This document shows, piece by piece, positions 1 to 35,714 of a stretch of 64,000 nucleotides of DNA; position 1 is the stretch's first letter, and every line of letters begins with the position of its first letter. The stretch lies in the IMG/VR virus record IMGVR_UViG_3300044679_000029, positions 32,001 through 96,000 of that record; one strand, given 5' to 3'. The translations under genes were made by a program, and so were the position numbers. Below the pieces are notes generated by a model that was not told the origin of the DNA, ran no database searches, and saw nothing but the letters and a program-made list of their open reading frames with translations. This stretch comes from an uncultured virus (IMG/VR IMGVR_UViG_3300044679_000029) (Duplodnaviria; Heunggongvirae; Uroviricota; Caudoviricetes).

Positions 1-161
1 TTTTCTAGGTGAATGCTAAACTTGGAACCAGCAATAGGAAAAGCTGCCTGGATACCCTCCAGGAGTTTTGTTCTTAATTGCTTGCGGTGTTCTTCGGCCG
101 GAAGAGATAGGGCTTCGAGAATCATGACTAATTATAGCCTTGGTCGGATAAGGGTGGAATG

Positions 162-171
162 TGGTATAAGA
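162..171 (+). promoter_or_regulatory. TGGTATAAGA promoter-like motif (extended -10)
   Basis: Same 10-mer at 351, 4248, 22135 and 57734, each upstream of + strand gene clusters. Confidence 0.6.
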
Positions 172-214
172 GATATGGTATACTGCAATATAACCATTCA
201 CCAAGGAGAATGCA

Positions 215-331
215 ATGTATTTTACTCTCGTAGCCTGTGTTGCTGTTGGCTGTCTTCCTGTAATCTGTGAGGGCATCAAGTGGTATTGGAAAACCGGTTT
301 TGCCTATATCTTCGACGGATTCGGCGATTAA
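215..331 (+). CDS. small hydrophobic hypothetical protein (MYFTLVACVAVG...)
   Basis: AAGGAG RBS upstream; follows promoter motif; 38 aa. Confidence 0.5.
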   Translation: MYFTLVACVAVGCLPVICEGIKWYWKTGFAYIFDGFGD

Positions 332-350
332 GCAATTAATCACCGTTTTA

Positions 351-360
351 TGGTATAAGA
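351..360 (+). promoter_or_regulatory. TGGTATAAGA promoter-like motif
   Basis: Repeated motif upstream of the small-gene operon. Confidence 0.6.
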
Positions 361-402
361 TATAGACATCTAAACCCCCATTTTCAGCCGGAGACCCCAA
401 AC

Positions 403-558
403 ATGGAAAAGCTCAAGAAGGCAGTCAACCGAACGGTTCGCGCGGCCCTGTTCACAATAGCGTTTTACACAATCTCATTCGGAGTAGCGTACGCTGTAAC
501 TGCGGCGTATGACAAACTATTCACCCCCAAATCCAAGGATAAGGAGAGCCGAAAATGA
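403..558 (+). CDS. small membrane protein (MEKLKKAVNR...)
   Basis: GGAG RBS, one hydrophobic segment, ATGA overlap with next gene. Confidence 0.6.
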   Translation: MEKLKKAVNRTVRAALFTIAFYTISFGVAYAVTAAYDKLFTPKSKDKESRK

Positions 559-695
559 TGAAGCTCGCAGATGCAATAGTCAAGACAGCCGTTGACACGT
601 TGTGTCTGATCGTCGCTGGCGCTTTCGTAATTGCACTCCTTGATTCTGAGGAAACAGAAGAAGATTCTTCTCCAGCCAAGCCGGAGGTTCATTAA
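555..695 (+). CDS. small membrane protein (MMKLADAIVK...)
   Basis: AAGGAG RBS, hydrophobic segment, acidic tail. Confidence 0.6.
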   Translation: MMKLADAIVKTAVDTLCLIVAGAFVIALLDSEETEEDSSPAKPEVH

Positions 696-696
696 C

Positions 697-1011
697 ATGC
701 AATACCAGGGTTGGAATGACTACTGGGTCATTCAGAGAAATCGCAAGTTCACGCAGTGGCTAAGCATTCTTCTTGCGGTCATTGCGCTGGTCATGTGCGC
801 GTTTGTAGCAAAGCGCGCACGCGCAGCAGAACCAGATGCCGCCGTAATGTTGCGACCTTGGCAATTCTGCCGTCGTCGCGTCGACAAGTATTCTCACAGG
901 CGAAAGTGGTGCTGGAACACCGACATCTGCTATAAATCACGCCAGATCTGCAACCGCTCTTTGACCGAGCAACTGCAATTTGAGCGTAGTACGGGTGCCA
1001 AAACCAGGTGA
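697..1011 (+). CDS. hypothetical membrane/secreted protein
   Basis: GGAGG RBS before ATG 697; TM segment; Cys-containing C-terminus. Confidence 0.6.
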   Translation: MQYQGWNDYWVIQRNRKFTQWLSILLAVIALVMCAFVAKRARAAEPDAAVMLRPWQFCRRRVDKYSHRRKWCWNTDICYKSRQICNRSLTEQLQFERSTGAKTR

Positions 1012-1298
1012 ACCCTCAACCAGGAGTACACTTGAAAAGATCAATACATAGCAGAGCAGAAGTGGATGAAATCATCGTTAGAACGTGTCGCATGGAATCA
1101 CAGGTAGAACTGTTGGTGATCCAAATTGAGGAAGCCAAAATAGAACTACCATTCTTGCCGCCGATGCTACAGGCGAGAACCCTCCAAAATATCATTCAAT
1201 GGCAGAGTGCTATTTCGGATGTAGAGCGAACCATTGCTCGGGCAAAAAAGGCGCTAGTAATGATAATAGCGTCGAACAAGGACGTAGCGCGCGCATGA
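1008..1298 (+). CDS. hypothetical protein
   Basis: GTGA overlap with upstream gene; tightly packed operon. Confidence 0.6.
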   Translation: MNPQPGVHLKRSIHSRAEVDEIIVRTCRMESQVELLVIQIEEAKIELPFLPPMLQARTLQNIIQWQSAISDVERTIARAKKALVMIIASNKDVARA

Positions 1299-1483
1299 GT
1301 AGAAGCAGTCGAAAGAAAGAAGATGCGAAGGTTCTTTGTTGGTACGTTCGGAGGCACCTCGGACGGAAGCACGATACCGACCTGTATATAAGAGCGGTAT
1401 TTGCCATCCACGAGTTCAGGGCTAAGTACCCTGAAGTTCGTGTTGAGGAGATAGCTAAGTATGGCGACAAAGCTGGCAGTTAA
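1295..1483 (+). CDS. hypothetical protein
   Basis: ATGA overlap; operon packing. Confidence 0.5.
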   Translation: MSRSSRKKEDAKVLCWYVRRHLGRKHDTDLYIRAVFAIHEFRAKYPEVRVEEIAKYGDKAGS

Positions 1484-1676
1484 CGTACACGACGACAGCT
1501 GTATTTCCTGCAAGAAGCCCGTCGATCCCTCGAAGCAACGACAGGCTTTCATCCACGATCACTGCGAGCCAATTCAATTTTGGCCAAAGTGGCGGCGAGA
1601 GCAGGTTTTCGTAGACCGCGAGAAGGTTCTCGCCAATCGGGCGAAGAAGCTCGCTTCAGCAGAGGCATCTCGGTAG
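1461..1676 (+). CDS. hypothetical Zn-binding protein
   Basis: CxxC...HxxC; GAGGAG RBS. Confidence 0.6.
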   Translation: MATKLAVNVHDDSCISCKKPVDPSKQRQAFIHDHCEPIQFWPKWRREQVFVDREKVLANRAKKLASAEASR

Positions 1677-1811
1677 ATGTGGGTGAGGACGCTGTGGGTC
1701 TTTGCGTCCCATCCTGTTTCAAAGAAGTTACTTCTCGTGCTCGGAACTGCGACGAAAAAGGCGCTCGGGTTCTGAACACACTGGTAGCAAACCCCAATCG
1801 GGAAGGCATTT

Positions 1812-2036
1812 ATGGGCAGAAAGCTTTTGAGGTTTCTCGACGAGTTGAACGCAAAATCAGCGGACCGTCTCCCCGAACACACGATAGCAAGATTCATCCG
1901 GGAAGCAGTTGGGACTGATTCACCCGTCGATAATGCAGAGCTTGATGCACAGCTGGATCAGCTGATTGGGCTTGCAAAGCAGGCCCGAAATCAGCTGAAA
2001 TCTAAGCACAAGGAAAACGCAGAATATGAGAATTAG
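1812..2036 (+). CDS. hypothetical protein
   Basis: RBS-like GGAAGG; overlaps S12 start. Confidence 0.55.
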
Positions 2037-2439
2037 TCAGTTGGTCCGTTTGGGCCGAAAGAAAGTCCACAAGAAGAGCAAGTCGCCTGCATTGATGGGC
2101 AGCCCACAACTCAGCGGGACTGTTCTCCAAAGCAAGGTCATGAAGCCAAAGAAGCCGAATAGCGCAAATCGTCACATCGCGCGCATCCGACTGAGTAATG
2201 GCCGTGAAGTCACCGCTTACTGCGGTGGAGAGAACTCCAACGTGCAAGAGCACGCTCACGTTCTCGTTCGCGGTGGCCGAGTCCCGGATTTGCCGGGTGT
2301 GAAGTATCACATCGTACGCGGCGCTTTGGATTATTCCGGCGCCAATTGCATGAGCAAGTGCACCGCTGAACCCGGCAACGCTGGTGACAAGAAGATGCGT
2401 AACCAGGGCCGGTCGAAGTACGGTGTGAAGGCTCATTAA
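2026..2439 (+). CDS. rpsL: ribosomal protein S12 (uS12) homolog, divergent
   Basis: [46 protein letters not shown] and RSKYGVK motifs of S12. Confidence 0.95.
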
Positions 2440-2444
2440 CAGAT

Positions 2445-2499
2445 TGACAAACAAGCGGACCGTAGGCTTAGAAGTAGCCATCGGTCCGCTTGTTTGTCA
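2445..2499 (+). terminator. 18-bp perfect stem-loop after rpsL (terminator or processing site)
   Basis: TGACAAACAAGCGGACCG (2445-2462) pairs with CGGTCCGCTTGTTTGTCA (2482-2499). Confidence 0.6.
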
Positions 2500-2849
2500 T
2501 GTTGTCTTGTGGACACACTAACCAAGGAATAGCAATATGTCAACCAAAGTAATCGAAGCCGAGATAGTACAACCGTCGTAAAGCCGGAGTTGATCGACAA
2601 CCGCGTGACGCGAGGCAAGCTCGGAGCGTTCAAGAACAGCCTCAAGGGTGGCGCCGCGCAGTTGGCACTTCCTCCCGCGAAGAAGAACAAGAAGACTAAG
2701 TAACACCTTGTGGGCACACCAGAAACAAACTAGACCACTTGGGGATGAGTCGGCTAATCCATAGCGTCTATCTCGCATCTGGTCATTTAAAGTGCTGGTC
2801 ACTGCCCCACGTTTTATGCCCCGTCGTAACACCAACCAAGGAGAACACA

Positions 2850-3062
2850 ATGTCGCTAGACACAGAGCCACTCGTATTCGATGTGCTTGGCCCGGATGGC
2901 GAGCCAGTTCAATTCGAAAGAGCACATAGCATTCCGCTGCGCGTCACTGAGAATGAATTGACGTGGCTGTTTGCTGTCGTGAAGAAGCACGATCCAAAAG
3001 GGCAAATGGAGAGCATCCATGAGCAGCTCTTGGCTCAACTCACAAGGTGGTCGAGCCTGTAA
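2850..3062 (+). CDS. hypothetical protein
   Basis: AAGGAG RBS before ATG 2850. Confidence 0.65.
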   Translation: MSLDTEPLVFDVLGPDGEPVQFERAHSIPLRVTENELTWLFAVVKKHDPKGQMESIHEQLLAQLTRWSSL

Positions 3063-3070
3063 TTAAGGTC

Positions 3071-3157
3071 GGGCCTGTGGCGAAACTGGTAGACGCACTG
3101 GACTCAAAATCCGGCGCCCTTCGATAAGGCATCTCGGTTCGAGTCCGAGCGGGCCCA
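3071..3157 (+). tRNA. tRNA-Leu(CAA)
   Basis: GGGCCTG/CGGGCCC acceptor stem, TGGTAGAC D arm, CTGGA-CT CAA AA-TCCGG anticodon arm, long variable arm, GGTTCGAGTCC T arm. Confidence 0.93.
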
Positions 3158-3169
3158 TAAGGAGATAAC

Positions 3170-3466
3170 ATGCAACAAGTTTTCATCGTAATTGGTTCTA
3201 CCGGCGAGTATGACGACCATACTGAATGGACGGTAGCGGCGTACGCGACGGAGATCGAAGCAACTTGGCATGCGCGCAAAGCTGAGATGTGGGCGGATGC
3301 TAATGCGGAACAGTTTAGGGAACATAGTTGCTCTTGTAGTCCACTAGTAAATCCGTACGACGAGGATATGCAAATGGATTACAGCGGCACTAGCTATTCT
3401 GTTCAGGGGCCGCTCGCTATTCTAACGCGGAAACAAACTGAGGACCGCGTTAAGGGAATAACATGA
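3170..3466 (+). CDS. hypothetical phage protein
   Basis: AAGGAG RBS; 98 aa. Confidence 0.7.
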   Translation: MQQVFIVIGSTGEYDDHTEWTVAAYATEIEATWHARKAEMWADANAEQFREHSCSCSPLVNPYDEDMQMDYSGTSYSVQGPLAILTRKQTEDRVKGIT

Positions 3467-3599
3467 AAATCATCTGCGACAGGAACACGAAATGACAACG
3501 GTAGAAATAACAAAAACGACATCGAAGTCGCTCTGAGCAGGGCCACCGAAGGAAACGTTACAATTTATGTCGACGATCTTGTTCGACTAGGAGACTAAA

Positions 3600-4232
3600 A
3601 TGAAATGGTTCTCAGAAGTAAAACCACTCGGGGACATTCGTCTCCCGGCTTTCATGGGTATCAGAATTCAGATGATGCCCGTGATTCTGGGCTACATGGA
3701 TAGCATTCCGTACGAGCTTCGGCACTTTCGAGAGACCATTCTCAGAATATTCTGCTTGATGGATCAGAAGCACATCGGACAGACTGGCTACTTGACCATC
3801 GATGAGAAGTTCGTCAGATTCGGTCAATTCCACCGGCGGTCGGGTTTGCACGTCGATGCTGGTGGGTGGGGTGGCAGTGGACCAAGGCATCCCGCCGCGA
3901 GCGCAGACAATGGCATGATCGTGACGCAGAGCCACGAGCACACTGTTGCCTACCACCAAGCATTCGAAGGTGAGATTGGTGAAGAGGGTGATTGCAAGTG
4001 TTTGCGTCGACAGGCAATAGCACCGAATCCTCTCAAGGCTTTCAAAGCCTACTGGCTCAGTGGGCTGACAGTCCACGGACACATCTCGCCAATGCTTCAA
4101 GACACAGCACGGCAATTCGTGCGACTGAGTTTGCCGTCTGACGCGCCGTGGTTTGACGGCTACACCGAAAACCCTTTGGGCGTCAAACCTACAGGTCCGG
4201 TGCTACCAAGACGCAAGTTCATGGATTTGTGA
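3600..4232 (+). CDS. putative 2OG-Fe(II) oxygenase-like phage protein
   Basis: HRRSGLHVD (HxD), later H (TVHG) and RQFVRL. Confidence 0.55.
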   Translation: MKWFSEVKPLGDIRLPAFMGIRIQMMPVILGYMDSIPYELRHFRETILRIFCLMDQKHIGQTGYLTIDEKFVRFGQFHRRSGLHVDAGGWGGSGPRHPAASADNGMIVTQSHEHTVAYHQAFEGEIGEEGDCKCLRRQAIAPNPLKAFKAYWLSGLTVHGHISPMLQDTARQFVRLSLPSDAPWFDGYTENPLGVKPTGPVLPRRKFMDL

Positions 4233-4241
4233 TTTCGGGTC

Positions 4242-4257
4242 AAAATCTGGTATAAGA
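4242..4257 (+). promoter_or_regulatory. AAAATCTGGTATAAGA promoter motif
   Basis: Identical 16-mer at 22129 and 57728. Confidence 0.7.
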
Positions 4258-4259
4258 TA

Positions 4260-4910
4260 TTGATCCGCGAATCATCGCTTCGCGATGCATGAGGCGGTAG
4301 ATCAATCCTGGTCTGGATAGTTCCAGGACCTTGGGTCTATCGCCTCACGTTAACTCTGGGCCTGTAAGCGTGTGTGCCAGCACAGTATGAGAACATCCGG
4401 TCGTTACAGCCGGTTAGGGACCAGTGACCCCCGGACATTGGTCCGGGGATAGGCCTGATGTAACCTCCGTCGCTGGCTTGGCGACGAACCTGAAATGCGT
4501 GCTCATTTGTGGGCCGCTGATTGTAAGGGACAAGTCAAACCACTTGGCTGCGGGTCGCCACCGCGGTGTTTCGAGAATTATAAGTGGGCCAGGGTTTCTC
4601 GTTACCTGGCACTTTTCAAACTGCCCGGCCGAAACGAGACCGGTTTAAAGTGTTCGCGAACTTCAGATCAGTTGGGACTGAACTAGTTCCCAGGTCAAGT
4701 CGCGATCTAAAAATCTCCTACAAAAAGCCCGATCCTGCAAGACCGGGTAATAAAAAGGAGTAGCCTTGCAGGGCGTTTAACGGGATGACGTAAATCGGGC
4801 GCGCGAGGCTGATACCTTGCGATGCTGACAGAATACGAAAACTCTCGTCAGGTTTGTGCTCTGGACCCATGGGTGGACGCCGGGGCACAAACCTGCTGTG
4901 TTCTTCGCAG
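4260..4910 (+). ncRNA. candidate large structured RNA / leader
   Basis: No credible ORF; successive hairpins e.g. 4290-4347, 4429-4448, 4468-4486, 4851-4893; starts right after the promoter motif. Confidence 0.55.
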
Positions 4911-4941
4911 CACAAACCCGTAGCAAGAAAGAGGCAATCAC

Positions 4942-5127
4942 ATGAGAACCGTTGAGTACTACTCCAAACTGAACGCGATCTGTGCTGAGTACTGCCCCAA
5001 GCTGGACGCGTGCGACGCTGAGTCCTGCTCCAAACTGAACGCGCTCAAAGCCGAGTTCAAGTCCAAGCTGGACGCGCTCGACGCTGAGTCCCACCTCAAC
5101 CAGCCCGCCGTCAGCACAAACCCGTAG
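4942..5127 (+). CDS. 11-mer repeat mini-protein 1
   Basis: GAAAGAGG RBS; SKLxAxxAEYx repeats. Confidence 0.75.
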   Translation: MRTVEYYSKLNAICAEYCPKLDACDAESCSKLNALKAEFKSKLDALDAESHLNQPAVSTNP

Positions 5128-5145
5128 CAAGAAAGAGGCAATCAC

Positions 5146-5382
5146 ATGAGAACCGTTGACAAATTCAATTCCAATGAGTACTGCTCCAAGCTGGACGCGA
5201 TCAATGCTGAGCGCGACTCCAAGCTGGACGCGATCAATGCTGAGTACTTCTCCAAGCTGGACGCGATCAATGCTGAGCGCGACTCCAAGCTGGACGCGAT
5301 CAGTGCTGAGCGCGACTCCAAGCTGGACGCGCTCGACGCTGAGTACCACCTCAACGAGCCCGCCGTCAGCACAAACCCGTAG
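5146..5382 (+). CDS. 11-mer repeat mini-protein 2
   Basis: Same RBS and repeats. Confidence 0.75.
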   Translation: MRTVDKFNSNEYCSKLDAINAERDSKLDAINAEYFSKLDAINAERDSKLDAISAERDSKLDALDAEYHLNEPAVSTNP

Positions 5383-5400
5383 CAAGAAAGAGGCAATCAC

Positions 5401-5817
5401 ATGAAAACCTTTGTTGACGAAATCAAGTCCAAGATGAACGCGTTCAGTGCTGAGTACTTCTCCAAGCTGGACGCGCGCGACGCTGAGTACAAGTCCAGGC
5501 TGGACGCGATCAGTGCTGAGTACAAGTCCAAGGCTGAGTTCAAGTCCAAGCGGAACGCGATCAATGCTGCGTACGACTCCAAGCGGAACGCGATCAACGC
5601 TGGGTACTTCTCCAAGCTGAACGCGTTCAGAGCCGAGTGCAGGTCCAAGCTGAACGCGCTCAGTGCTGAGTACGACTCCAAGCTGAACGCGATCAACGCT
5701 GGGTACTTCTCCAAGCTGAACGCGTTCAGAGCCGAGTGCAGGTCCAAGCTGAACGCGCTCAGTGCTGAGTACTTCCCCAAGCTGGAAGCGCTCATTGCTG
5801 AGTACCACCTCAACTAG
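5401..5817 (+). CDS. 11-mer repeat mini-protein 3
   Basis: Same RBS and repeats; longest copy. Confidence 0.75.
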   Translation: MKTFVDEIKSKMNAFSAEYFSKLDARDAEYKSRLDAISAEYKSKAEFKSKRNAINAAYDSKRNAINAGYFSKLNAFRAECRSKLNALSAEYDSKLNAINAGYFSKLNAFRAECRSKLNALSAEYFPKLEALIAEYHLN

Positions 5818-5859
5818 CCCGCCGTCAGCACAAACCCGTAGCAAGAAAGAGGCAATCAC

Positions 5860-6024
5860 ATGAGAACCGTTGACAAATTCAATTCCAAGCTGTACGCGCT
5901 CGGTGCTGAGTACGACTCCAAGCTGTACGCGATCAACGCTGAGTACAGATCCAAGCTGAACGCGATCAATGCTGAGTACTTATCCAAGCTGAAAGCGCTC
6001 GACGCTGAGTCCCACCTCAACTAG
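5860..6024 (+). CDS. 11-mer repeat mini-protein 4 (54 aa, not in ORF track)
   Basis: MRTVDKFNSKLYALGAEYDSKLYAINAEY...HLN*; same RBS. Confidence 0.75.
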   Translation: MRTVDKFNSKLYALGAEYDSKLYAINAEYRSKLNAINAEYLSKLKALDAESHLN

Positions 6025-6066
6025 CCCGCCGTCAGCACAAACCCGTAGCAAGAAAGAGGCAATCAC

Positions 6067-6348
6067 ATGAGAACCGTTGACAAATTCAATTCCAAACTGA
6101 ACGCGATCAGTGCTGAGTCCAGGATAAACGCGATCAGTGCTGAGTACGACTCCGAGCTGAACGCGATCAATGCTGAGTACTGCTCCAAGATGAACGCGCT
6201 CAGTGCTGAGTACTGCTCCGAGCTGGACGCGTGCGACGCTGGTCACTGCTCCAAACTGAACGCGCTCAAAGCCGAGCTCAAGTCCGAGCTGGACGCGCTC
6301 GACGCTGAGTCCCACCTCAACCAGCCCGCCGTCAGCACAAACCCGTAG
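6067..6348 (+). CDS. 11-mer repeat mini-protein 5
   Basis: Same RBS and repeats. Confidence 0.75.
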   Translation: MRTVDKFNSKLNAISAESRINAISAEYDSELNAINAEYCSKMNALSAEYCSELDACDAGHCSKLNALKAELKSELDALDAESHLNQPAVSTNP

Positions 6349-6362
6349 CTCAAACCGGAGGT

Positions 6363-6572
6363 GTGCAAGTGATAATCAAGCCGAATCAGTTGACTCCCAT
6401 CCCAGAGGGCATCAAGATCAAGAAGATTTCGGCAGGCGAAACCAGCGGAGTCTTCTTTGTGATCAGCCACATCACAAGGTTCATGTCGCGGGAAAACAAG
6501 AATTCGCGGCGTAAGCCAGACCAGTATCAGCCCAGAAATCTCTCGGGCTTCGATCCGGTCGAGAGCGAATAA
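6363..6572 (+). CDS. hypothetical protein
   Basis: GGAGG upstream (start may be GTG 6369); follows the array. Confidence 0.5.
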   Translation: MQVIIKPNQLTPIPEGIKIKKISAGETSGVFFVISHITRFMSRENKNSRRKPDQYQPRNLSGFDPVESE

Positions 6573-6724
6573 TCTTCTAGACTTTCTCCCGGGCTAAGGT
6601 CATGCCTGGTAATGGCCCTAATTAGTCAATGCGGGCTAGAAAGCGGGAATCCCATGAAGTGGACCTAGCGATCCGACAATCTAATGCATAGATTAGCACT
6701 AGAATAACTCTGAGAAAACTGTGA

Positions 6725-6837
6725 GCCCACAAGAAGATATCTTCTTGTATATACGTTTATAACCCCCCAATCTGACAGAAATTGTCGGAACGGCAATGGG
6801 AATAAACGTGTATACGTGAGGATATCTTCTTGTGGGC
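6725..6837. repeat. long imperfect inverted repeat with internal 20-bp palindrome
   Basis: GCCCACAAGAAGATATCTT...TATACGTTTAT versus ATAAACGTGTATAC...GATATCTTCTTGTGGGC. Confidence 0.85.
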
Positions 6838-6861
6838 AATTAAGATTTGTCGGTTTTTAGG

Positions 6862-6890
6862 TTGACTTCCTATAACATCTGAATTATACT
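6862..6890 (+). promoter_or_regulatory. sigma70-type promoter
   Basis: TTGACT-17-TATACT upstream of portal. Confidence 0.7.
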
Positions 6891-6936
6891 AGACATGATT
6901 AGCGGAACTATAATTTAGTACTAGGAAGACAAACTA

Positions 6937-8688
6937 ATGCCTTTATATACCGACGCAGTTCAAGGGAGCTTATTTCCCTCTAGTAACAGTCAACCCAATC
7001 CTTTATTTACTTATCTCCAGGGGTTTATTCCCAGAAAACTCAAGGACCTATTTAGGTGGTTGGAATATCTATCCTATAACTCAACGCATATCTATGCCGG
7101 ACTATATAAGCTCGCGGATTATTCGGTTACAGACGTTCAATACTTAACCGATTCCACCCAGGAAAAAACTCGGCATAAAGATTTACTTGAGAAGACGTTA
7201 CACATTAAATCGTTACTTAAAGCAGCGTCACGCGACCGCCTTATATACGGAAATAGTTTCATATCTCTATACATGCCGTTTATCCGCAATATGGTGTGCA
7301 CTGGTTGTAAGATTAAGCGCAATATAGATACTGTCGACTATAAGTTTAAGTGGAAGAATCTTACGTTTAACTGGCTTTGCAAGGAATGCGGCCAATCAAA
7401 CATGACTGGCGTCGACGATTTTGAGGATATCAAAGTCCCCAACCATAAGCGTATTAACGTTATCCGGTGGGACCCCAAGCTGATAGACATCGATTATAAT
7501 CCCCTAACCGGTGAAAGCACAATCTACTACACGATTCCAAAAGAAGTTAAGGAGAAGATTCGTGCTGGTAATAAGCATCTTCTAAATTCGATGCCTGTTG
7601 GATTTTTAAAGGCCGTCAAAGAAGATCGTCTATTTAAGTTCGACAGAGGTCAAGTCTTCCATATGAAGATCGATGCACCAGCCGGTATCGATTCTCAGTG
7701 GGGCTTCTCACCGTTACTAGCAACTATTCCTAGCTTCCTGTATGTGGCCGTATTACGTAAGGCCAACGAAGCCATCGCATTAGATTTCGCTGTACCTCTT
7801 CGTATTCTTCACCCGGCACAATCGTCTTCTAACGCTGATCCGGTGTCGACTATTAACTTAGGTAACTGGACTGAGAAGACACGCGAAAATATTCGTAAGT
7901 GGCGTCGAGACCCCTTGCACATCATGTTTGCGCCTGTGCCATTAGGAATAACTCAGATGGGTGGGACTGCAAAATTGCTCTTAACTGCAACTGAGATTCG
8001 TGACGTAGAGGATAACATTATTACTGCTCTAGGTATTCCTCGTGAATTTATTTACGGCGGGATGACTATGACCGGGTCTAGCGTAACACTACGCATGTTA
8101 GAGAACCAACTTCTAACTCAGACCAAAGATCTAGAAGACTTAATGGGTTGGATTGACGACAAGTGTGCGACATTCTTAGGGTGGGGTAAGATACATACTG
8201 AGCTACTGCCGTTTAAACTTGTGGACGATGTTGCGCAAAAAAATGTTCTAGTTCAAATTAATCAAGTTAAACCGATTATTTCTGATACTACAATCGCAGA
8301 AGTCTTCGGCTACGATCTTAAGAAAGAGCGAAAGCTTAGAATGCAAGAAGCATTGGACGAGGCGCGCTTCCAGATGGAAATGCAGAAGAGCGTTTCTGAT
8401 ATACAAAATAACCTTGGCCAGCAAGCACGGACACAAGCGGGATCCGCACCGCCATATAATCCTCAGCAGATTGTACAACAGGCTGATCAACTCGTACAAC
8501 AGTTATCGGGACTCGATCACGGTTCCCGCAAATCTGAACTAGATAAACTAAAAAAAGAAGACTTCGTTCTATACGCGGTAACAGCGAAACGTCTTGAGGA
8601 CTATAACAATACTCAAACTCAGGCAGCCAAAAGTCAACAAACAGGTGGCGGACAACCGGCACCGCAACCGTCGGGCGGAGCAAAGTAG
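6937..8688 (+). CDS. portal protein
   Basis: Portal-like layout (D.LIYGNSF, QVFHMK, WGFSPL, IITALGIPREF), Q-rich tail, 583 aa. Confidence 0.75.
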   Translation: MPLYTDAVQGSLFPSSNSQPNPLFTYLQGFIPRKLKDLFRWLEYLSYNSTHIYAGLYKLADYSVTDVQYLTDSTQEKTRHKDLLEKTLHIKSLLKAASRDRLIYGNSFISLYMPFIRNMVCTGCKIKRNIDTVDYKFKWKNLTFNWLCKECGQSNMTGVDDFEDIKVPNHKRINVIRWDPKLIDIDYNPLTGESTIYYTIPKEVKEKIRAGNKHLLNSMPVGFLKAVKEDRLFKFDRGQVFHMKIDAPAGIDSQWGFSPLLATIPSFLYVAVLRKANEAIALDFAVPLRILHPAQSSSNADPVSTINLGNWTEKTRENIRKWRRDPLHIMFAPVPLGITQMGGTAKLLLTATEIRDVEDNIITALGIPREFIYGGMTMTGSSVTLRMLENQLLTQTKDLEDLMGWIDDKCATFLGWGKIHTELLPFKLVDDVAQKNVLVQINQVKPIISDTTIAEVFGYDLKKERKLRMQEALDEARFQMEMQKSVSDIQNNLGQQARTQAGSAPPYNPQQIVQQADQLVQQLSGLDHGSRKSELDKLKKEDFVLYAVTAKRLEDYNNTQTQAAKSQQTGGGQPAPQPSGGAK

Positions 8689-32780: not shown

Positions 32781-35714
32781 ATGCAAAACATAATGAGCGC
32801 GGCTCAGGAATTTGTATTCACTAGAACATACGCCAGGTGGATTGAAGATAAGAAGCGCCGAGAAACATGGTCTGAAGCGGTAGACAGATATTTCAGTTTT
32901 ATGCAGAAGCACTTTTATGATAAGGTGCCAACAAAAGTTTGGACTAAAACAAAAGAATTAGTCCTGTCGATGGACGTCATGCCCAGCATGCGCGCTTTAG
33001 CCGCTGCTGGACCAGCCCTAGAAAAAAATAATCTTGTTGGCTACAACTGCACAGCCATGGCCTTTAAAGATTTACAGTCTCCGGTCGAGCTTTTTTTTAT
33101 ATTAATGTGTGGCTGCGGTGCGGGATTTAGTGTTGAGGAAGAATTTATTTCACAGATGCCGTCTGTAGCAAAATTCACTGGTTATCATCGGGGGACGCAC
33201 GTCGTAGGCGATAGTCGTGAAGACTGGTGTTTAGCGCTTAAGGCCGGTTTAGAAGTATGGTTTGCCGGTGAGGATATTGATTTCGATGTCTCACAAGTAA
33301 GGCCTAAAGGCTCTCGATTGATTACCATGGGTGGGAGGGCTAGCGGTCCTGAACCACTACAAAAACTACTGTCATTTGTACGAGATATTGTATTAAAGGC
33401 GCAGGGGCGAAAATTAACAAGCATTGAATGGCTAGACGTAGGAAACATGATTGGGCAGGCTGTTGTGGTCGGTGGAGTAAGACGTTCTAGTGAGATCTCC
33501 TTCTCTGACTTAAATGACGAAGCTATGCGTCATGCTAAAGATTTCCCTATTCCTCCACACCGCTATATGAGCAATAACAGCGCCGTGTATAAAACAAAAC
33601 CGGATATGATTACTTTTATTCGTGAGTGGGGAGCACTAGCTTCTAGTGGAAGTGGCGAACGTGGAATATGTAATATAGAGGCCGCTAAAAAAGCTAGCCC
33701 GCGCCGCAATCCGTCAGATGCGCTAAGATTTAACCCTTGTCAGCCCGCCGGCGCCTCGTTGCTAACTCCAGCCGGGATACGAACTATGGGGGAAATGCAA
33801 ATTGGCGATACGGTGTGGTCCGGTAAACGATGGACGAAAATAACTAATAAGGTTGCTACCGGTGTCAAACCCGTTTTTTCCTATCGCACGAAAGCTGGCG
33901 TTTTTGTGGGTACAGAAAACCACAGAGTGGTATCTGCTGGCATTAAAATAATGGCACAAGACGCAGAATCGATTGATATTGCTTGTGGCGAGCTATATAA
34001 AAAAATACTGCCGATCTGCCCAGCAGATGTGATGGACGGATTAGTTGTGGGCGACGGAACAGTACACAGAGCCTCAAACAATCTAGTGCTTCTACTAGTA
34101 GGTGCTAAAGACTTGTCGTGGCTTACAAGTGAGGTAAAAGATTTATTTAAAACTGCCAGGCCCGGCGTGGGGGCGTATGAATACGAAATTAACACGACAA
34201 TTACCGACACAGAACTGCCTAGAACTTATGACCAGCGTGTGCCTCCGCGATTTATTTATGGCAACTTAAATAAAGTATGTGGCTTTCTACGCGGGTTATA
34301 CTCTGCTAACGGATCTATATGCGGCGGCAGAGTTACTCTGAAAGCGTCAAGTCTACAAATAATAACTGACGTGCAATGTATGTTATCTGCGCTTGGCATT
34401 ACTTCGTACTATACAACTAACAAACCGCATAACGTAGAATTCGACAATGGCGTATATACGTGTAAACAAAGCTATGATCTAAATATCACAACTGACCGAC
34501 GAAAATTTAATGATCTTATAGGATTTATACAACCAGATAAACAAACTCGGCTAGACGACTGTTGTGAAATAATTCCGTCTGGCAAACGGAAAGAAACATA
34601 CGACATCGTTGATATCGTTGCTCTAGGAGAGGAACCGGTATTTGATATTACTGTTGATGACGACGAACATACATATTGGACTGGAGGTCTACTAGTTTCA
34701 AACTGCTCGGAGATTATTCTGCGAGCGGATAAAACGCAGGCGTGTAATCTATCCGAAGTAGTTGTTCGTGCTAGCGATAAAATGGATGATCTTACCGAAA
34801 AAGTTAAAGCCGCAACTTGGTTAGGTGCCATGCAGTCGTGTCTAACAAACTTCCCTTTCATGCGCCCAAGTTTTAAAGAGATGTGTGAAGAAGAAAGATT
34901 ATTGGGTGTTAGTCTAACTGGGCAAATGGATAACCCAAAAATGATGACAGCTGAGCGACTAGAAGATTTACGTAATCTAGCTATAAAAACGTGTAGAAAA
35001 GCTAGTAAGGCACTTGATATAAACATGTCCGTCGCTATAACCACAACTAAACCAAGCGGGACCGTATCACAACTAGTAAATTCTGCGTCCGGTGCTCATC
35101 CACGTTACGCGAAGTATTACATTAGACGCTATCGTATCAGTGGTACGGATCCATTGTTTAAAATGATGCAGGCTCAAGGTATTAAGTTTTCCCCCGAGAA
35201 CGGCGAGCGGCCGGAAGATCTTGAGCAGCGACGTAAAGATCTCATTTCTAAGGGACGAACTGTTGAAGAAGTGCGTGCATTAATCCCGGAATGGAATGCT
35301 GAATCTGTAATGACCTGGGTGGTCTCGTTTCCAGAAGCGGCGCCTAAAAACGCTATAACTAGAGAGCAAGTTACAGCAATAGACCAACTTGAGTGGTATC
35401 TTAAATTAAAGCAAAATTGGGTAGAACATAATTCTAGTATTACTGTTTATGTTCGTGATAATGAGTGGCTAAAAGTTGGCGCTTGGGTATATGACCATTT
35501 TGATGATATCGTAGGTGTTTCATTTCTTCCGTACGATGGTGGAAACTATTCACAAACGCCGTATGAGGAAATAGCCAAGGAACAATACGATAAAATGATC
35601 TCAGAGATGCCGAAGATAGATTACGCCAAATTGGCCGATTTTGAGGTAGAAGATAGTACTACGGGAATCGGCGCCATCGCTTCCTGTACTGGTACATCAT
35701 GTGAGCTGAAATAA
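32781..35714 (+). CDS. nrdJ: class II (B12-dependent) ribonucleotide reductase with intein
   Basis: RTYARW, PSMR, GYNC, LMCGCGAGFSV, ASGPEPL, VVVGGVRRS, NP/CSE, CNLSEV, KPSGTVSQL, C-terminal CTGTSCE. Confidence 0.93.
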   Translation: MQNIMSAAQEFVFTRTYARWIEDKKRRETWSEAVDRYFSFMQKHFYDKVPTKVWTKTKELVLSMDVMPSMRALAAAGPALEKNNLVGYNCTAMAFKDLQSPVELFFILMCGCGAGFSVEEEFISQMPSVAKFTGYHRGTHVVGDSREDWCLALKAGLEVWFAGEDIDFDVSQVRPKGSRLITMGGRASGPEPLQKLLSFVRDIVLKAQGRKLTSIEWLDVGNMIGQAVVVGGVRRSSEISFSDLNDEAMRHAKDFPIPPHRYMSNNSAVYKTKPDMITFIREWGALASSGSGERGICNIEAAKKASPRRNPSDALRFNPCQPAGASLLTPAGIRTMGEMQIGDTVWSGKRWTKITNKVATGVKPVFSYRTKAGVFVGTENHRVVSAGIKIMAQDAESIDIACGELYKKILPICPADVMDGLVVGDGTVHRASNNLVLLLVGAKDLSWLTSEVKDLFKTARPGVGAYEYEINTTITDTELPRTYDQRVPPRFIYGNLNKVCGFLRGLYSANGSICGGRVTLKASSLQIITDVQCMLSALGITSYYTTNKPHNVEFDNGVYTCKQSYDLNITTDRRKFNDLIGFIQPDKQTRLDDCCEIIPSGKRKETYDIVDIVALGEEPVFDITVDDDEHTYWTGGLLVSNCSEIILRADKTQACNLSEVVVRASDKMDDLTEKVKAATWLGAMQSCLTNFPFMRPSFKEMCEEERLLGVSLTGQMDNPKMMTAERLEDLRNLAIKTCRKASKALDINMSVAITTTKPSGTVSQLVNSASGAHPRYAKYYIRRYRISGTDPLFKMMQAQGIKFSPENGERPEDLEQRRKDLISKGRTVEEVRALIPEWNAESVMTWVVSFPEAAPKNAITREQVTAIDQLEWYLKLKQNWVEHNSSITVYVRDNEWLKVGAWVYDHFDDIVGVSFLPYDGGNYSQTPYEEIAKEQYDKMISEMPKIDYAKLADFEVEDSTTGIGAIASCTGTSCELK
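33738..34703 (+). mobile_element. intein with LAGLIDADG homing endonuclease (322 aa)
   Basis: Starts CQPAG after FNP, ends LLVSN before CSEI; TENH block B; GLVVGDG and FLRGLYSANGS motifs. Confidence 0.92.

Follow-up and report, generated by a model that had tools for sequence, protein, structure and literature searches.

The stretch at positions 4260-4910 of a 64,000-nucleotide (nt) window from an uncultivated phage is explained here, with moderate confidence, as the long, GC-rich, non-coding 5' leader of a small operon, in which transcription from a phage promoter would run through the leader into six mini-genes and an open reading frame (ORF) of 69 amino acids (aa). The window comprises bases 32001-96000 of a linear phage record in IMG/VR, which has 117,101 bp and is estimated to be 65% complete, and positions refer to the window unless given as genome positions. 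The stretch is non-coding, lies directly behind a motif that recurs across the phage genome and is bridged to the mini-genes by contigs from RNA libraries. It is taken to be a real, orphan leader, probably acting in cis. The features of the leader and of its downstream cargo are as follows, with the pair probability of each hairpin in brackets.

4227-4256, + strand: putative promoter, with a -35-like TTGTGA at 4227-4232, an 18-nt spacer and the extended -10 element TGGTATAAG at 4248-4256
4263-4941, + strand: non-coding leader of about 680 nt, reaching from the putative start of transcription to the mini-gene 1 ATG
4272-4628, + strand: 5' part, seen as one abundant RNA contig (depth 30.5 in the RNA run X4)
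4290-4347, + strand: long irregular hairpin with a 14-bp lower stem, two G-U pairs and a tip helix (0.96)
4429-4448, + strand: GC-rich hairpin of 8 bp with a 4-nt loop (0.97)
4588-4616, + strand: 6-bp hairpin 4588-4593/4605-4610 followed by ACTTTTC (0.85)
4640-4834, + strand: invariant leader core, with a hairpin at 4654-4705 and a CUCCU/AGGAG-closed domain at 4715-4760 (helices predicted from the partition function)
4850-4894, + strand: 15-bp hairpin with two U-G pairs, inverted repeat I4 (0.97)
4908-4944, + strand: first copy of the 17-nt junction repeat (4908-4924), Shine-Dalgarno (SD) sequence AGAGG (4930-4934) and ATG (4942) of mini-gene 1
4942-6572, + strand: downstream cargo, six mini-genes of 33-nt (11-aa) repeats (4942-6348) followed by the 69-aa ORF (6363-6572)

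Non-coding status and the upstream motif

Between the stop codon of the upstream ORF (3600-4232) and the ATG at 4942, the longest ORFs with an ATG, GTG or TTG start encoded 74, 63 and 59 aa on the + strand and 65 aa on the - strand. The gap also takes in the tail of a 360-aa frame that runs antisense to the repeat array and is open through four array units. Searches of Pfam and PHROGs with nine stop-to-stop frames of the region gave no match below E 0.03. Natural variants of the stretch carried indels of +1, +8, -1, +1, +2, +1, +1, -1 and +2 plus a 52-nt deletion, the listed indels not being multiples of three. A protein-coding gene or pseudogene was rejected on the basis of the short ORFs (74 aa at most), the lack of a family match, the frame-breaking indels and the 52-nt deletion. 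The stretch 4233-4941 contains no credible gene and is non-coding, in agreement with the first-pass annotation of this DNA, which had seen no credible ORF in 4260-4910. The same annotation had described the stretch as unusually long for a compact genome. This was only partly right: the ORF-free gap is long, but by length it ranked just eighth (544 nt) among the 17 gaps in the record that span 300 nt or more and contain no ORF of 80 aa or longer. Its GC content was the highest of the 17 (0.528, or 0.541 for 4258-4910), with the next at 0.478 and the others at 0.365-0.471, and was the same as that of its flanks (0.533). The stretch lies in a GC-richer island made up of the first 7 kb of the window (GC 0.48-0.56, compared with about 0.40-0.47 over most of the remainder and about 0.43-0.46 for the genome).

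Directly ahead of the stretch, AAAATCTGGTATAAGA ends at position 4256. Its core, TGGTATAAGA, is a motif of the extended -10 type, and the putative promoter overlaps the stop codon of ORF 3600-4232. With up to two mismatches, the 12-mer TCTGGTATAAGA occurred 18 times in the window, 15 of them on the + strand, compared with 5.8 expected, and none of 100 shuffled sequences reached 18. With up to one mismatch, 17 copies were found in the whole genome, all on the + strand and mostly intergenic. The consensus points to promoter function, and the earlier placing of the stretch behind a phage promoter is borne out by this recurrent + strand motif with its -10 element ending at 4256. The next SD-preceded ORF was located 27-67 nt downstream in 8 of the 17 copies, whereas the distance at the stretch under study was 679 nt. 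This indicates that the leader is exceptional for its promoter class. Two more copies had gaps that long, at genome positions 24488 (679 nt) and 29740 (2266 nt). At genome 24488-25174, the motif copy is followed by about 680 nt without an SD-preceded ORF, in AT-rich sequence (GC 0.365).

Between the mini-genes of the array lies an identical junction of 17-37 nt that carries a ribosome-binding site (RBS), and the unit lengths are all multiples of 3. The 17-nt junction repeat (family D3) is present in six identical copies, and every mini-gene has an SD sequence and an ATG on the + strand. Array copy number differs between lineages, one of which is without the array.

RNA-library cover and natural variants

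Public sequencing runs with sequence near-identical to the stretch numbered 24; they came from peat, soil, freshwater and lake samples and included six RNA libraries. Data on cover and variation were obtained from the assembled contigs of four of these 24 runs (X4, X6, X9 and X15), which represent about three other lineages at about 98% identity. In the RNA run X4, contigs at 4272-4628 (depth 30.5), 4599-4937 (depth 10.6) and 4926-5089 (depth 8.9), plus parts of the array, reached into the first mini-gene, and two contigs lay in the upstream gene at depth 4. The portions of X4 that lack cover (3600-3882 and 4164-4257) were given no weight, as absence cannot be demonstrated with contigs. In X9, an RNA run from a second study, a contig of depth 7.39 ended at 4640 and the next, of depth 3.1, began at 4650, a break that is bridged in the DNA run X15. 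RNA-library contigs from two studies cover the stretch, which weakly indicates that it is transcribed. With the promoter motif directly upstream and the lack of coding potential, the bridging contigs lend support to the earlier suggestion of a leader co-transcribed with the mini-genes.

Position 4272 is 16 nt after the -10 element and near the expected start site. Loose letters, which we take to be Illumina adapter sequence, adjoin the X4 contig before 4272 and behind 4628, and adapter-like letters at both contig ends suggest that many fragments share those ends. Their orientation, in which the second mate reads the + strand, would weakly favour + strand RNA, provided that the library is stranded and the adapter correctly identified. 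The depth and end signals near 4272 and 4628-4640 are weak hints, and 4272-4628 may be an attenuated or processed 5' fragment.

Variation was distributed along the leader as follows. The freshwater DNA run X6 had 10 substitutions and 14 gap letters over 4056-4663 and no differences over 4640-4907. In this variant 4907 is followed at once by 6333, the joint falling between copies of the 17-nt repeat, so that the whole array is missing and leader 4640-4907 is unchanged. The lake DNA run X15 had the changes of X6 at 4291, 4322, 4323 and 4325 and a single difference, at 4623, over 4592-4870. The soil RNA library X9 had changes of its own at 4440, 4441 and 4444, no differences over 4650-4834, and a shorter array. 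The 5' part of the leader and the upstream gene differed by 1-2% between lineages, while the core at 4640-4834 differed by 0 in three lineages. At a local divergence of 1-1.7%, this invariance suggests constraint, although a tract of recent recombination would look alike. The upstream-gene substitutions listed (4007, 4148 and 4154) were all at third codon positions, given an ORF start at 3600.

Predicted folding and searches for relatives

Folding of a 670-nt segment gave z = -4.55 on the + strand and -4.02 on the - strand, and none of 100 shuffles reached the real value on either strand. The - strand value ranged from -4.02 to -5.11 in runs with 20 and 100 shuffles. Seven 670-nt windows elsewhere in the phage gave z-scores from -1.90 to +1.83. 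Among 200-nt tiles, those at 4201-4400 (z = -3.05), 4701-4900 (z = -3.36) and 4801-5000 (z = -2.67) stood out; tiles of the upstream gene reached -3.77 and -3.97, and 3 of 40 random control tiles were below -2.

All six stems listed in the first-pass annotation were present in the sequence, and four of them were among the helices with a mean pair probability of at least 0.76 (4290-4303/4334-4347, 4429-4436/4441-4448, 4468-4474/4480-4486 and 4673-4676/4689-4692). In the partition function, the CCTGCAAG/CTTGCAGG stem was in competition with another fold and the CTGAC/GTCAG stem lay outside the high-probability helices. At its AAGGAG box the invariant core has mutually exclusive helices, CTCCT/AGGAG with GCCCG/CGGGT as opposed to CCTGCAAG/CTTGCAGG, and it could be speculated that these form a switch. 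The 3' arm of the hairpin at 4850-4894 resembles the 17-nt junction repeat of the array and is followed by a U-rich stretch and a 6-bp hairpin (4895-4911). This hairpin and that at 4290-4347 each contain two G-U pairs, which would be A-C mismatches on the - strand. The element at 4588-4616 (6 bp, 4 U), which was not called by the terminator scan, is a weak candidate for a partial terminator and ends 12 nt ahead of the contig end at 4628. Pairing between the leader and the junction/RBS repeat was rejected as not significant, as shuffled sequences attained the best duplex (-42.9 kcal/mol) in 25 of 300 and 36 of 300 cases.

Eight of the nine leader substitutions were at positions with a pair probability of at least 0.82 in the partition function. 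In the hairpin at 4290-4347, the tip and the second pair vary without compensation in X6 and X15. In that at 4429-4448, the X9 change at 4440 is in the loop, the change at 4441 breaks the closing pair and the change at 4444 gives a G-U pair, and in that at 4588-4616 the A-to-G change at 4591 leaves the pair as G-U. Three of the nine indels (4427, 4506 and 4579) were between low-pairing positions, four (4284, 4286, 4509 and 4571) were borderline and two (4329 and 4498) were in stems. This may hint that indels avoid stems, in numbers too small to test.

A cmscan search of the whole window at Rfam 15 gathering thresholds (4227 families) matched only tRNA-Leu. An Rfam scan of 3900-5300 with E-values up to 10 gave four matches, all with E of at least 1.2 and 16-19 bits, to unrelated microRNA (miRNA) and small RNA models; a scan of 1-7100 gave nothing further inside the stretch, and ARAGORN found no tRNA or tmRNA within it. 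Membership of the GOLLD or ROOL families was rejected, as there was no covariance-model match even at E up to 10. The setting is GOLLD/ROOL-like, with a phage record and tRNA-Leu 1.1 kb upstream, a feature that is not specific. RNase P RNA, tmRNA, group I and II introns and known ribozymes and riboswitches were rejected for want of a covariance-model or ARAGORN match, and the first-pass annotation had likewise seen no signatures of RNase P, tmRNA or group I/II introns. Two further candidates were rejected: a template RNA of a retron, diversity-generating retroelement or defence-associated reverse transcriptase, as PF00078 had 0 matches in the 117-kb record (which is an estimated 65% complete, so that absence from the phage is unproven), and a mobile element, as there were no flanking inverted or direct repeats.

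A blastn search in distant mode against 50,697 phage records gave no match to the stretch. The closest non-self relatives of the upstream 210-aa protein were 49-51% identical, and 31 IMG/VR loci with a relative of this protein showed no similarity to the stretch (best blastn E 0.51; nothing with nhmmer) and no conserved downstream gap. Locus searches by single proteins (210-aa, 583-aa and SNF2) found no homologous stretch. In 30 whole records of related phages, BLAST with the leader found only matches of 14-25 nt (E of at least 0.025), and the covariance model R1 of 4640-4834, built from one sequence and its predicted structure, found only itself in 31 records. Exact searches gave 0 matches with a 25-mer of the array junction and 0 matches with a 27-mer of the invariant core in IMG/VR and JGI metagenome contigs, collections that may lack records near the window's own. 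Five Planctomycetota genomes gave one 25-nt match (E 0.054), and in 401 Planctomycetota genomes matches of 21-26 nt were found in five (E 0.0025-0.0096), which is chance level. Self-BLAST within the genome showed recurrence only of the promoter motif and the junction repeat. The 78-aa mini-gene protein had no homologues, and the 69-aa ORF had none beyond its own cluster. The whole module of leader, array and 69-aa ORF is an orphan, and the stretch is an orphan example of a structured 5' leader or candidate non-coding RNA (ncRNA) outside any curated RNA family.

For the start site, partial termination or processing and any regulatory role, we infer the following mechanism. The extended -10 promoter at 4248-4256 would fire, with transcription starting at about 4263, and RNA polymerase would run through the leader of about 680 nt into the mini-genes. 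Stable local hairpins would form one after another along the leader RNA, with the largest at 4290-4347 and 4850-4894. These large hairpins would probably act in cis as RNA-stability or processing elements, together with a partial stop, and their length and irregularity may make them similar to RNase III substrates. A share of transcripts would end or be cut near 4628-4640, after the weak hairpin-plus-U element at 4588-4616, leaving an abundant 5' fragment of about 360 nt, and the other transcripts would continue past the 15-bp hairpin (4850-4894) and on through the mini-genes and the 69-aa ORF.

Several observations weigh against this mechanism. Four 670-nt control windows elsewhere in the island gave z-scores of -4.48, -2.61, -4.19 and -3.34, the last two covering the uS12 gene and the 210-aa gene. 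Neighbouring island windows fold about as well, which indicates that the excess of folding is a property of the island and not of the stretch. In the comparison with shuffles proposed by the first-pass annotation, the stretch beat shuffled sequence (z = -4.55) but did no better than these neighbours. The 200-nt tiles between the ends of the stretch gave z-scores of only -0.21 to -1.5, so that the middle is not locally structured, and overall G-U counts favoured neither strand (23 of 219 pairs compared with 22 of 215). The intrinsic terminator scan of 3400-7100 called no + strand terminator, and the sole canonical hairpin plus T-run in that region is on the - strand, at 4747-4728. The RNA evidence consists of contigs, in which depth, ends and strand are crude and PCR duplicates and DNA carry-over in the RNA libraries are not excluded. 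The adapter-abutted contig at 4272-4628 could be a single over-amplified fragment, and the X9 RNA contig begins at 4032, upstream of the promoter, and shows no start site. X9 is also without 4835-4886 (52 nt), so that the 3' hairpin is dispensable in one lineage. Of the nine leader substitutions, four kept a pair (one-sided), four broke a pair, one was in a loop and none was compensated. This pattern matches neutral transitions, and the variants consequently give no support to a conserved fold.

Genomic setting, competing explanations and meaning

The + strand of the island carries, in order, two copies of the promoter motif, small unannotated ORFs, a uS12 homologue, tRNA-Leu, a 210-aa ORF, the stretch under study, the six mini-genes (4942-6348) and the 69-aa ORF (6363-6572). 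The recognized neighbours upstream are listed below.

2026-2439, + strand: full-length homologue of ribosomal protein uS12, 1.8 kb upstream of the stretch (Pfam S12/S23, E 7.9e-29; PDB S12 chains, E about 1e-35)
3071-3157: tRNA-Leu, 1.1 kb upstream of the stretch (ARAGORN and Rfam scans)
3600-4232, + strand: 210-aa ORF directly upstream of the stretch

A full-length uS12 is unusual phage cargo. Its best GTDB matches were only 51-59% identical and mostly from metagenome-assembled genomes of Planctomycetota, and this similarity provides a weak lead to Planctomycetota as the phage host. The whole record holds only two tRNAs. The 210-aa protein belongs to a large unnamed family (182 relatives, with no Pfam and no PDB sequence match) in which H84 and D86 are invariant and H159 is near-invariant. 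Its AlphaFold model (predicted local distance difference test score, pLDDT, 82.7) had weak but consistent Foldseek matches to Fe(II)/2-oxoglutarate (2OG) dioxygenases, including ribosomal oxygenases (best E 1.8e-3; template-modelling score 0.3-0.4), which hints at a putative 2OG-oxygenase-like enzyme beside uS12. Positions 600-2000, also in the island, likewise fold better than shuffled sequence and contain just short overlapping ORFs with TTG or GTG starts and without family matches, and further ncRNA or foreign DNA may be hidden in the island (positions 1-7000). A 36-nt inverted repeat at 6725-6837 (89% complementary, with 41 nt between the arms) is located within an AT-rich gap and directly precedes the sigma-70-like promoter (6862-6890) of a 583-aa gene. 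Its local fold signal (z = -9.35 in a 200-nt tile) exceeded all others seen, and its sole Rfam match was a spurious miRNA model. Elsewhere, there are genes for a family A DNA polymerase, an SNF2 helicase and a ribonucleotide reductase, the last of which (window 32781-35714, + strand) includes a LAGLIDADG domain, as would fit the insertion of an intein or a homing endonuclease. The final 12 kb of the record contains eight ORF-free gaps of 307-1297 nt (genome 105584-114914).

A neutral spacer, that is decayed or imported DNA in the GC-rich island that is transcribed by position and bears incidental hairpins, would account for the better-than-shuffled folding of the whole island, windows with recognized genes included, for the equal GC content of gap and flanks (0.528 vs 0.533) and for an orphan module without homologues. 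It would also fit a 5' half that changes at about the rate of the third codon positions of the neighbouring gene, and the tolerance of pair-breaking changes and of the 52-nt deletion. However, no frame retains any trace of a protein family, phages rarely carry as much as 650 nt of DNA to no purpose and the leader is intact in the array-deleted lineage. Over 4640-4834, three lineages had 0 differences where roughly 2-5 would be expected at 1-1.7%, a result that recent recombination could also explain. A neutral spacer is considered unlikely. The invariant core and the retention of the leader in X6 after loss of the array can also be read in favour of an independent trans-acting or structural large ncRNA of a new class, in which the whole 650 nt or the 4272-4628 species would have a job of its own, with a possible link to the neighbouring translation genes (uS12 homologue and tRNA-Leu, 1.8 kb and 1.1 kb upstream). 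Such an RNA would be in keeping with the length of the stretch, with the highest GC content among the 17 ORF-free gaps, with the whole-length z of -4.5 (0 of 100 shuffles) and with the 4272-4628 contig, which is flanked on both sides by adapter-like letters and is three times as deep as the next contig. On the other side, 0 of 4227 Rfam families matched at E up to 10, the collections searched held no homologue and hence no covariation evidence, and the z-score was not above those of neighbouring island windows. The middle 350 nt are without local structure, as many substitutions break a predicted pair as preserve one, and the abundant 5' fragment is the more variable half. This explanation is rated as quite unlikely, and the proposal in the first-pass annotation of a novel large ncRNA of the GOLLD or ROOL kind found no positive support, with no Rfam match, z-scores like those of neighbours and no compensatory change. 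More doubtful still is the idea that the leader or 4272-4628 is the first member of a new class of large phage structured RNAs, with its own strong promoter, in phages of peat, soil and lakes and with a role in the takeover or tuning of host translation. It would be retained without the array, and its place in the island beside uS12, the tRNA and the 2OG-oxygenase-like protein would point to such a role.

A function on the other strand or at the DNA level, whether as an antisense 3' region with a terminator or as a recombination or replication site, is suggested mainly by the - strand terminator at 4747-4728, which follows shortly after the 360-aa antisense frame ends at 4777. The - strand also folds as well (z -4.02 to -5.11), and the array is recombinogenic, with the X6 joint of 4907 to 6333 between 17-nt repeats. 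Strand-specific features contradict this suggestion: all 17 promoter-motif copies are on the + strand, every mini-gene has a + strand SD sequence and ATG, and to the right of the array the scan of 3400-7100 turned up no - strand promoter, its sole - strand site (3498-3469) being upstream. There is a break in the antisense frame at 5860-5979, loss of the 52 nt in X9 would put the 65-aa - strand ORF out of frame, and the adapter orientation weakly fits + strand RNA. The region is also GC-rich, unlike typical AT-rich origins, and neither iterons nor flanking inverted repeats were detected. Such a function is very improbable.

The favoured reading, a cis-acting leader, can be compared with known systems. 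The early leader of phage T7 upstream of gene 0.3 is a long untranslated lytic-phage leader with RNase III-type hairpins. Like T7-type early leaders, the stretch has a putative strong phage promoter, several hundred untranslated bases and long irregular hairpins, followed by small co-transcribed genes. It differs from them in having no sequence relation, in being longer (about 680 nt) and GC-rich compared with its genome, and in preceding a hypervariable array of repeat mini-genes. As in attenuation and riboswitch leaders, the stretch is promoter-proximal and structured, with mutually exclusive helices and a 5' part that exceeds the downstream mRNA in RNA libraries. In contrast to these, it has no known aptamer and no called + strand terminator, is far longer and suggests no ligand or partner. 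GOLLD and ROOL are large ornate RNAs and Rfam families (PMC5737381, PMC12286853). The stretch is similar to them in being non-coding, several hundred nt long and phage-borne with a tRNA gene nearby, and dissimilar in having no model match, no homologue family and no sign of covariation or of an ornate conserved fold, being locally hairpin-rich at its ends only. In function, its closest analogues would be the long early leaders with hairpins that lytic phages have, along with leaders of the attenuator type.

If the stretch is only a long leader, it would be a routine though unusually long phage 5' untranslated RNA, of value for annotating the expression unit of the array. The lineage is present in peat, soil and freshwater data sets, including metatranscriptomes, and raw reads bearing on RNA ends, strand and variation already exist. 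If the 5' species is stable and has a function of its own, it would be an orphan large ncRNA of an uncultivated phage lineage, possibly one infecting Planctomycetota, that is tied to a translation-related gene set.

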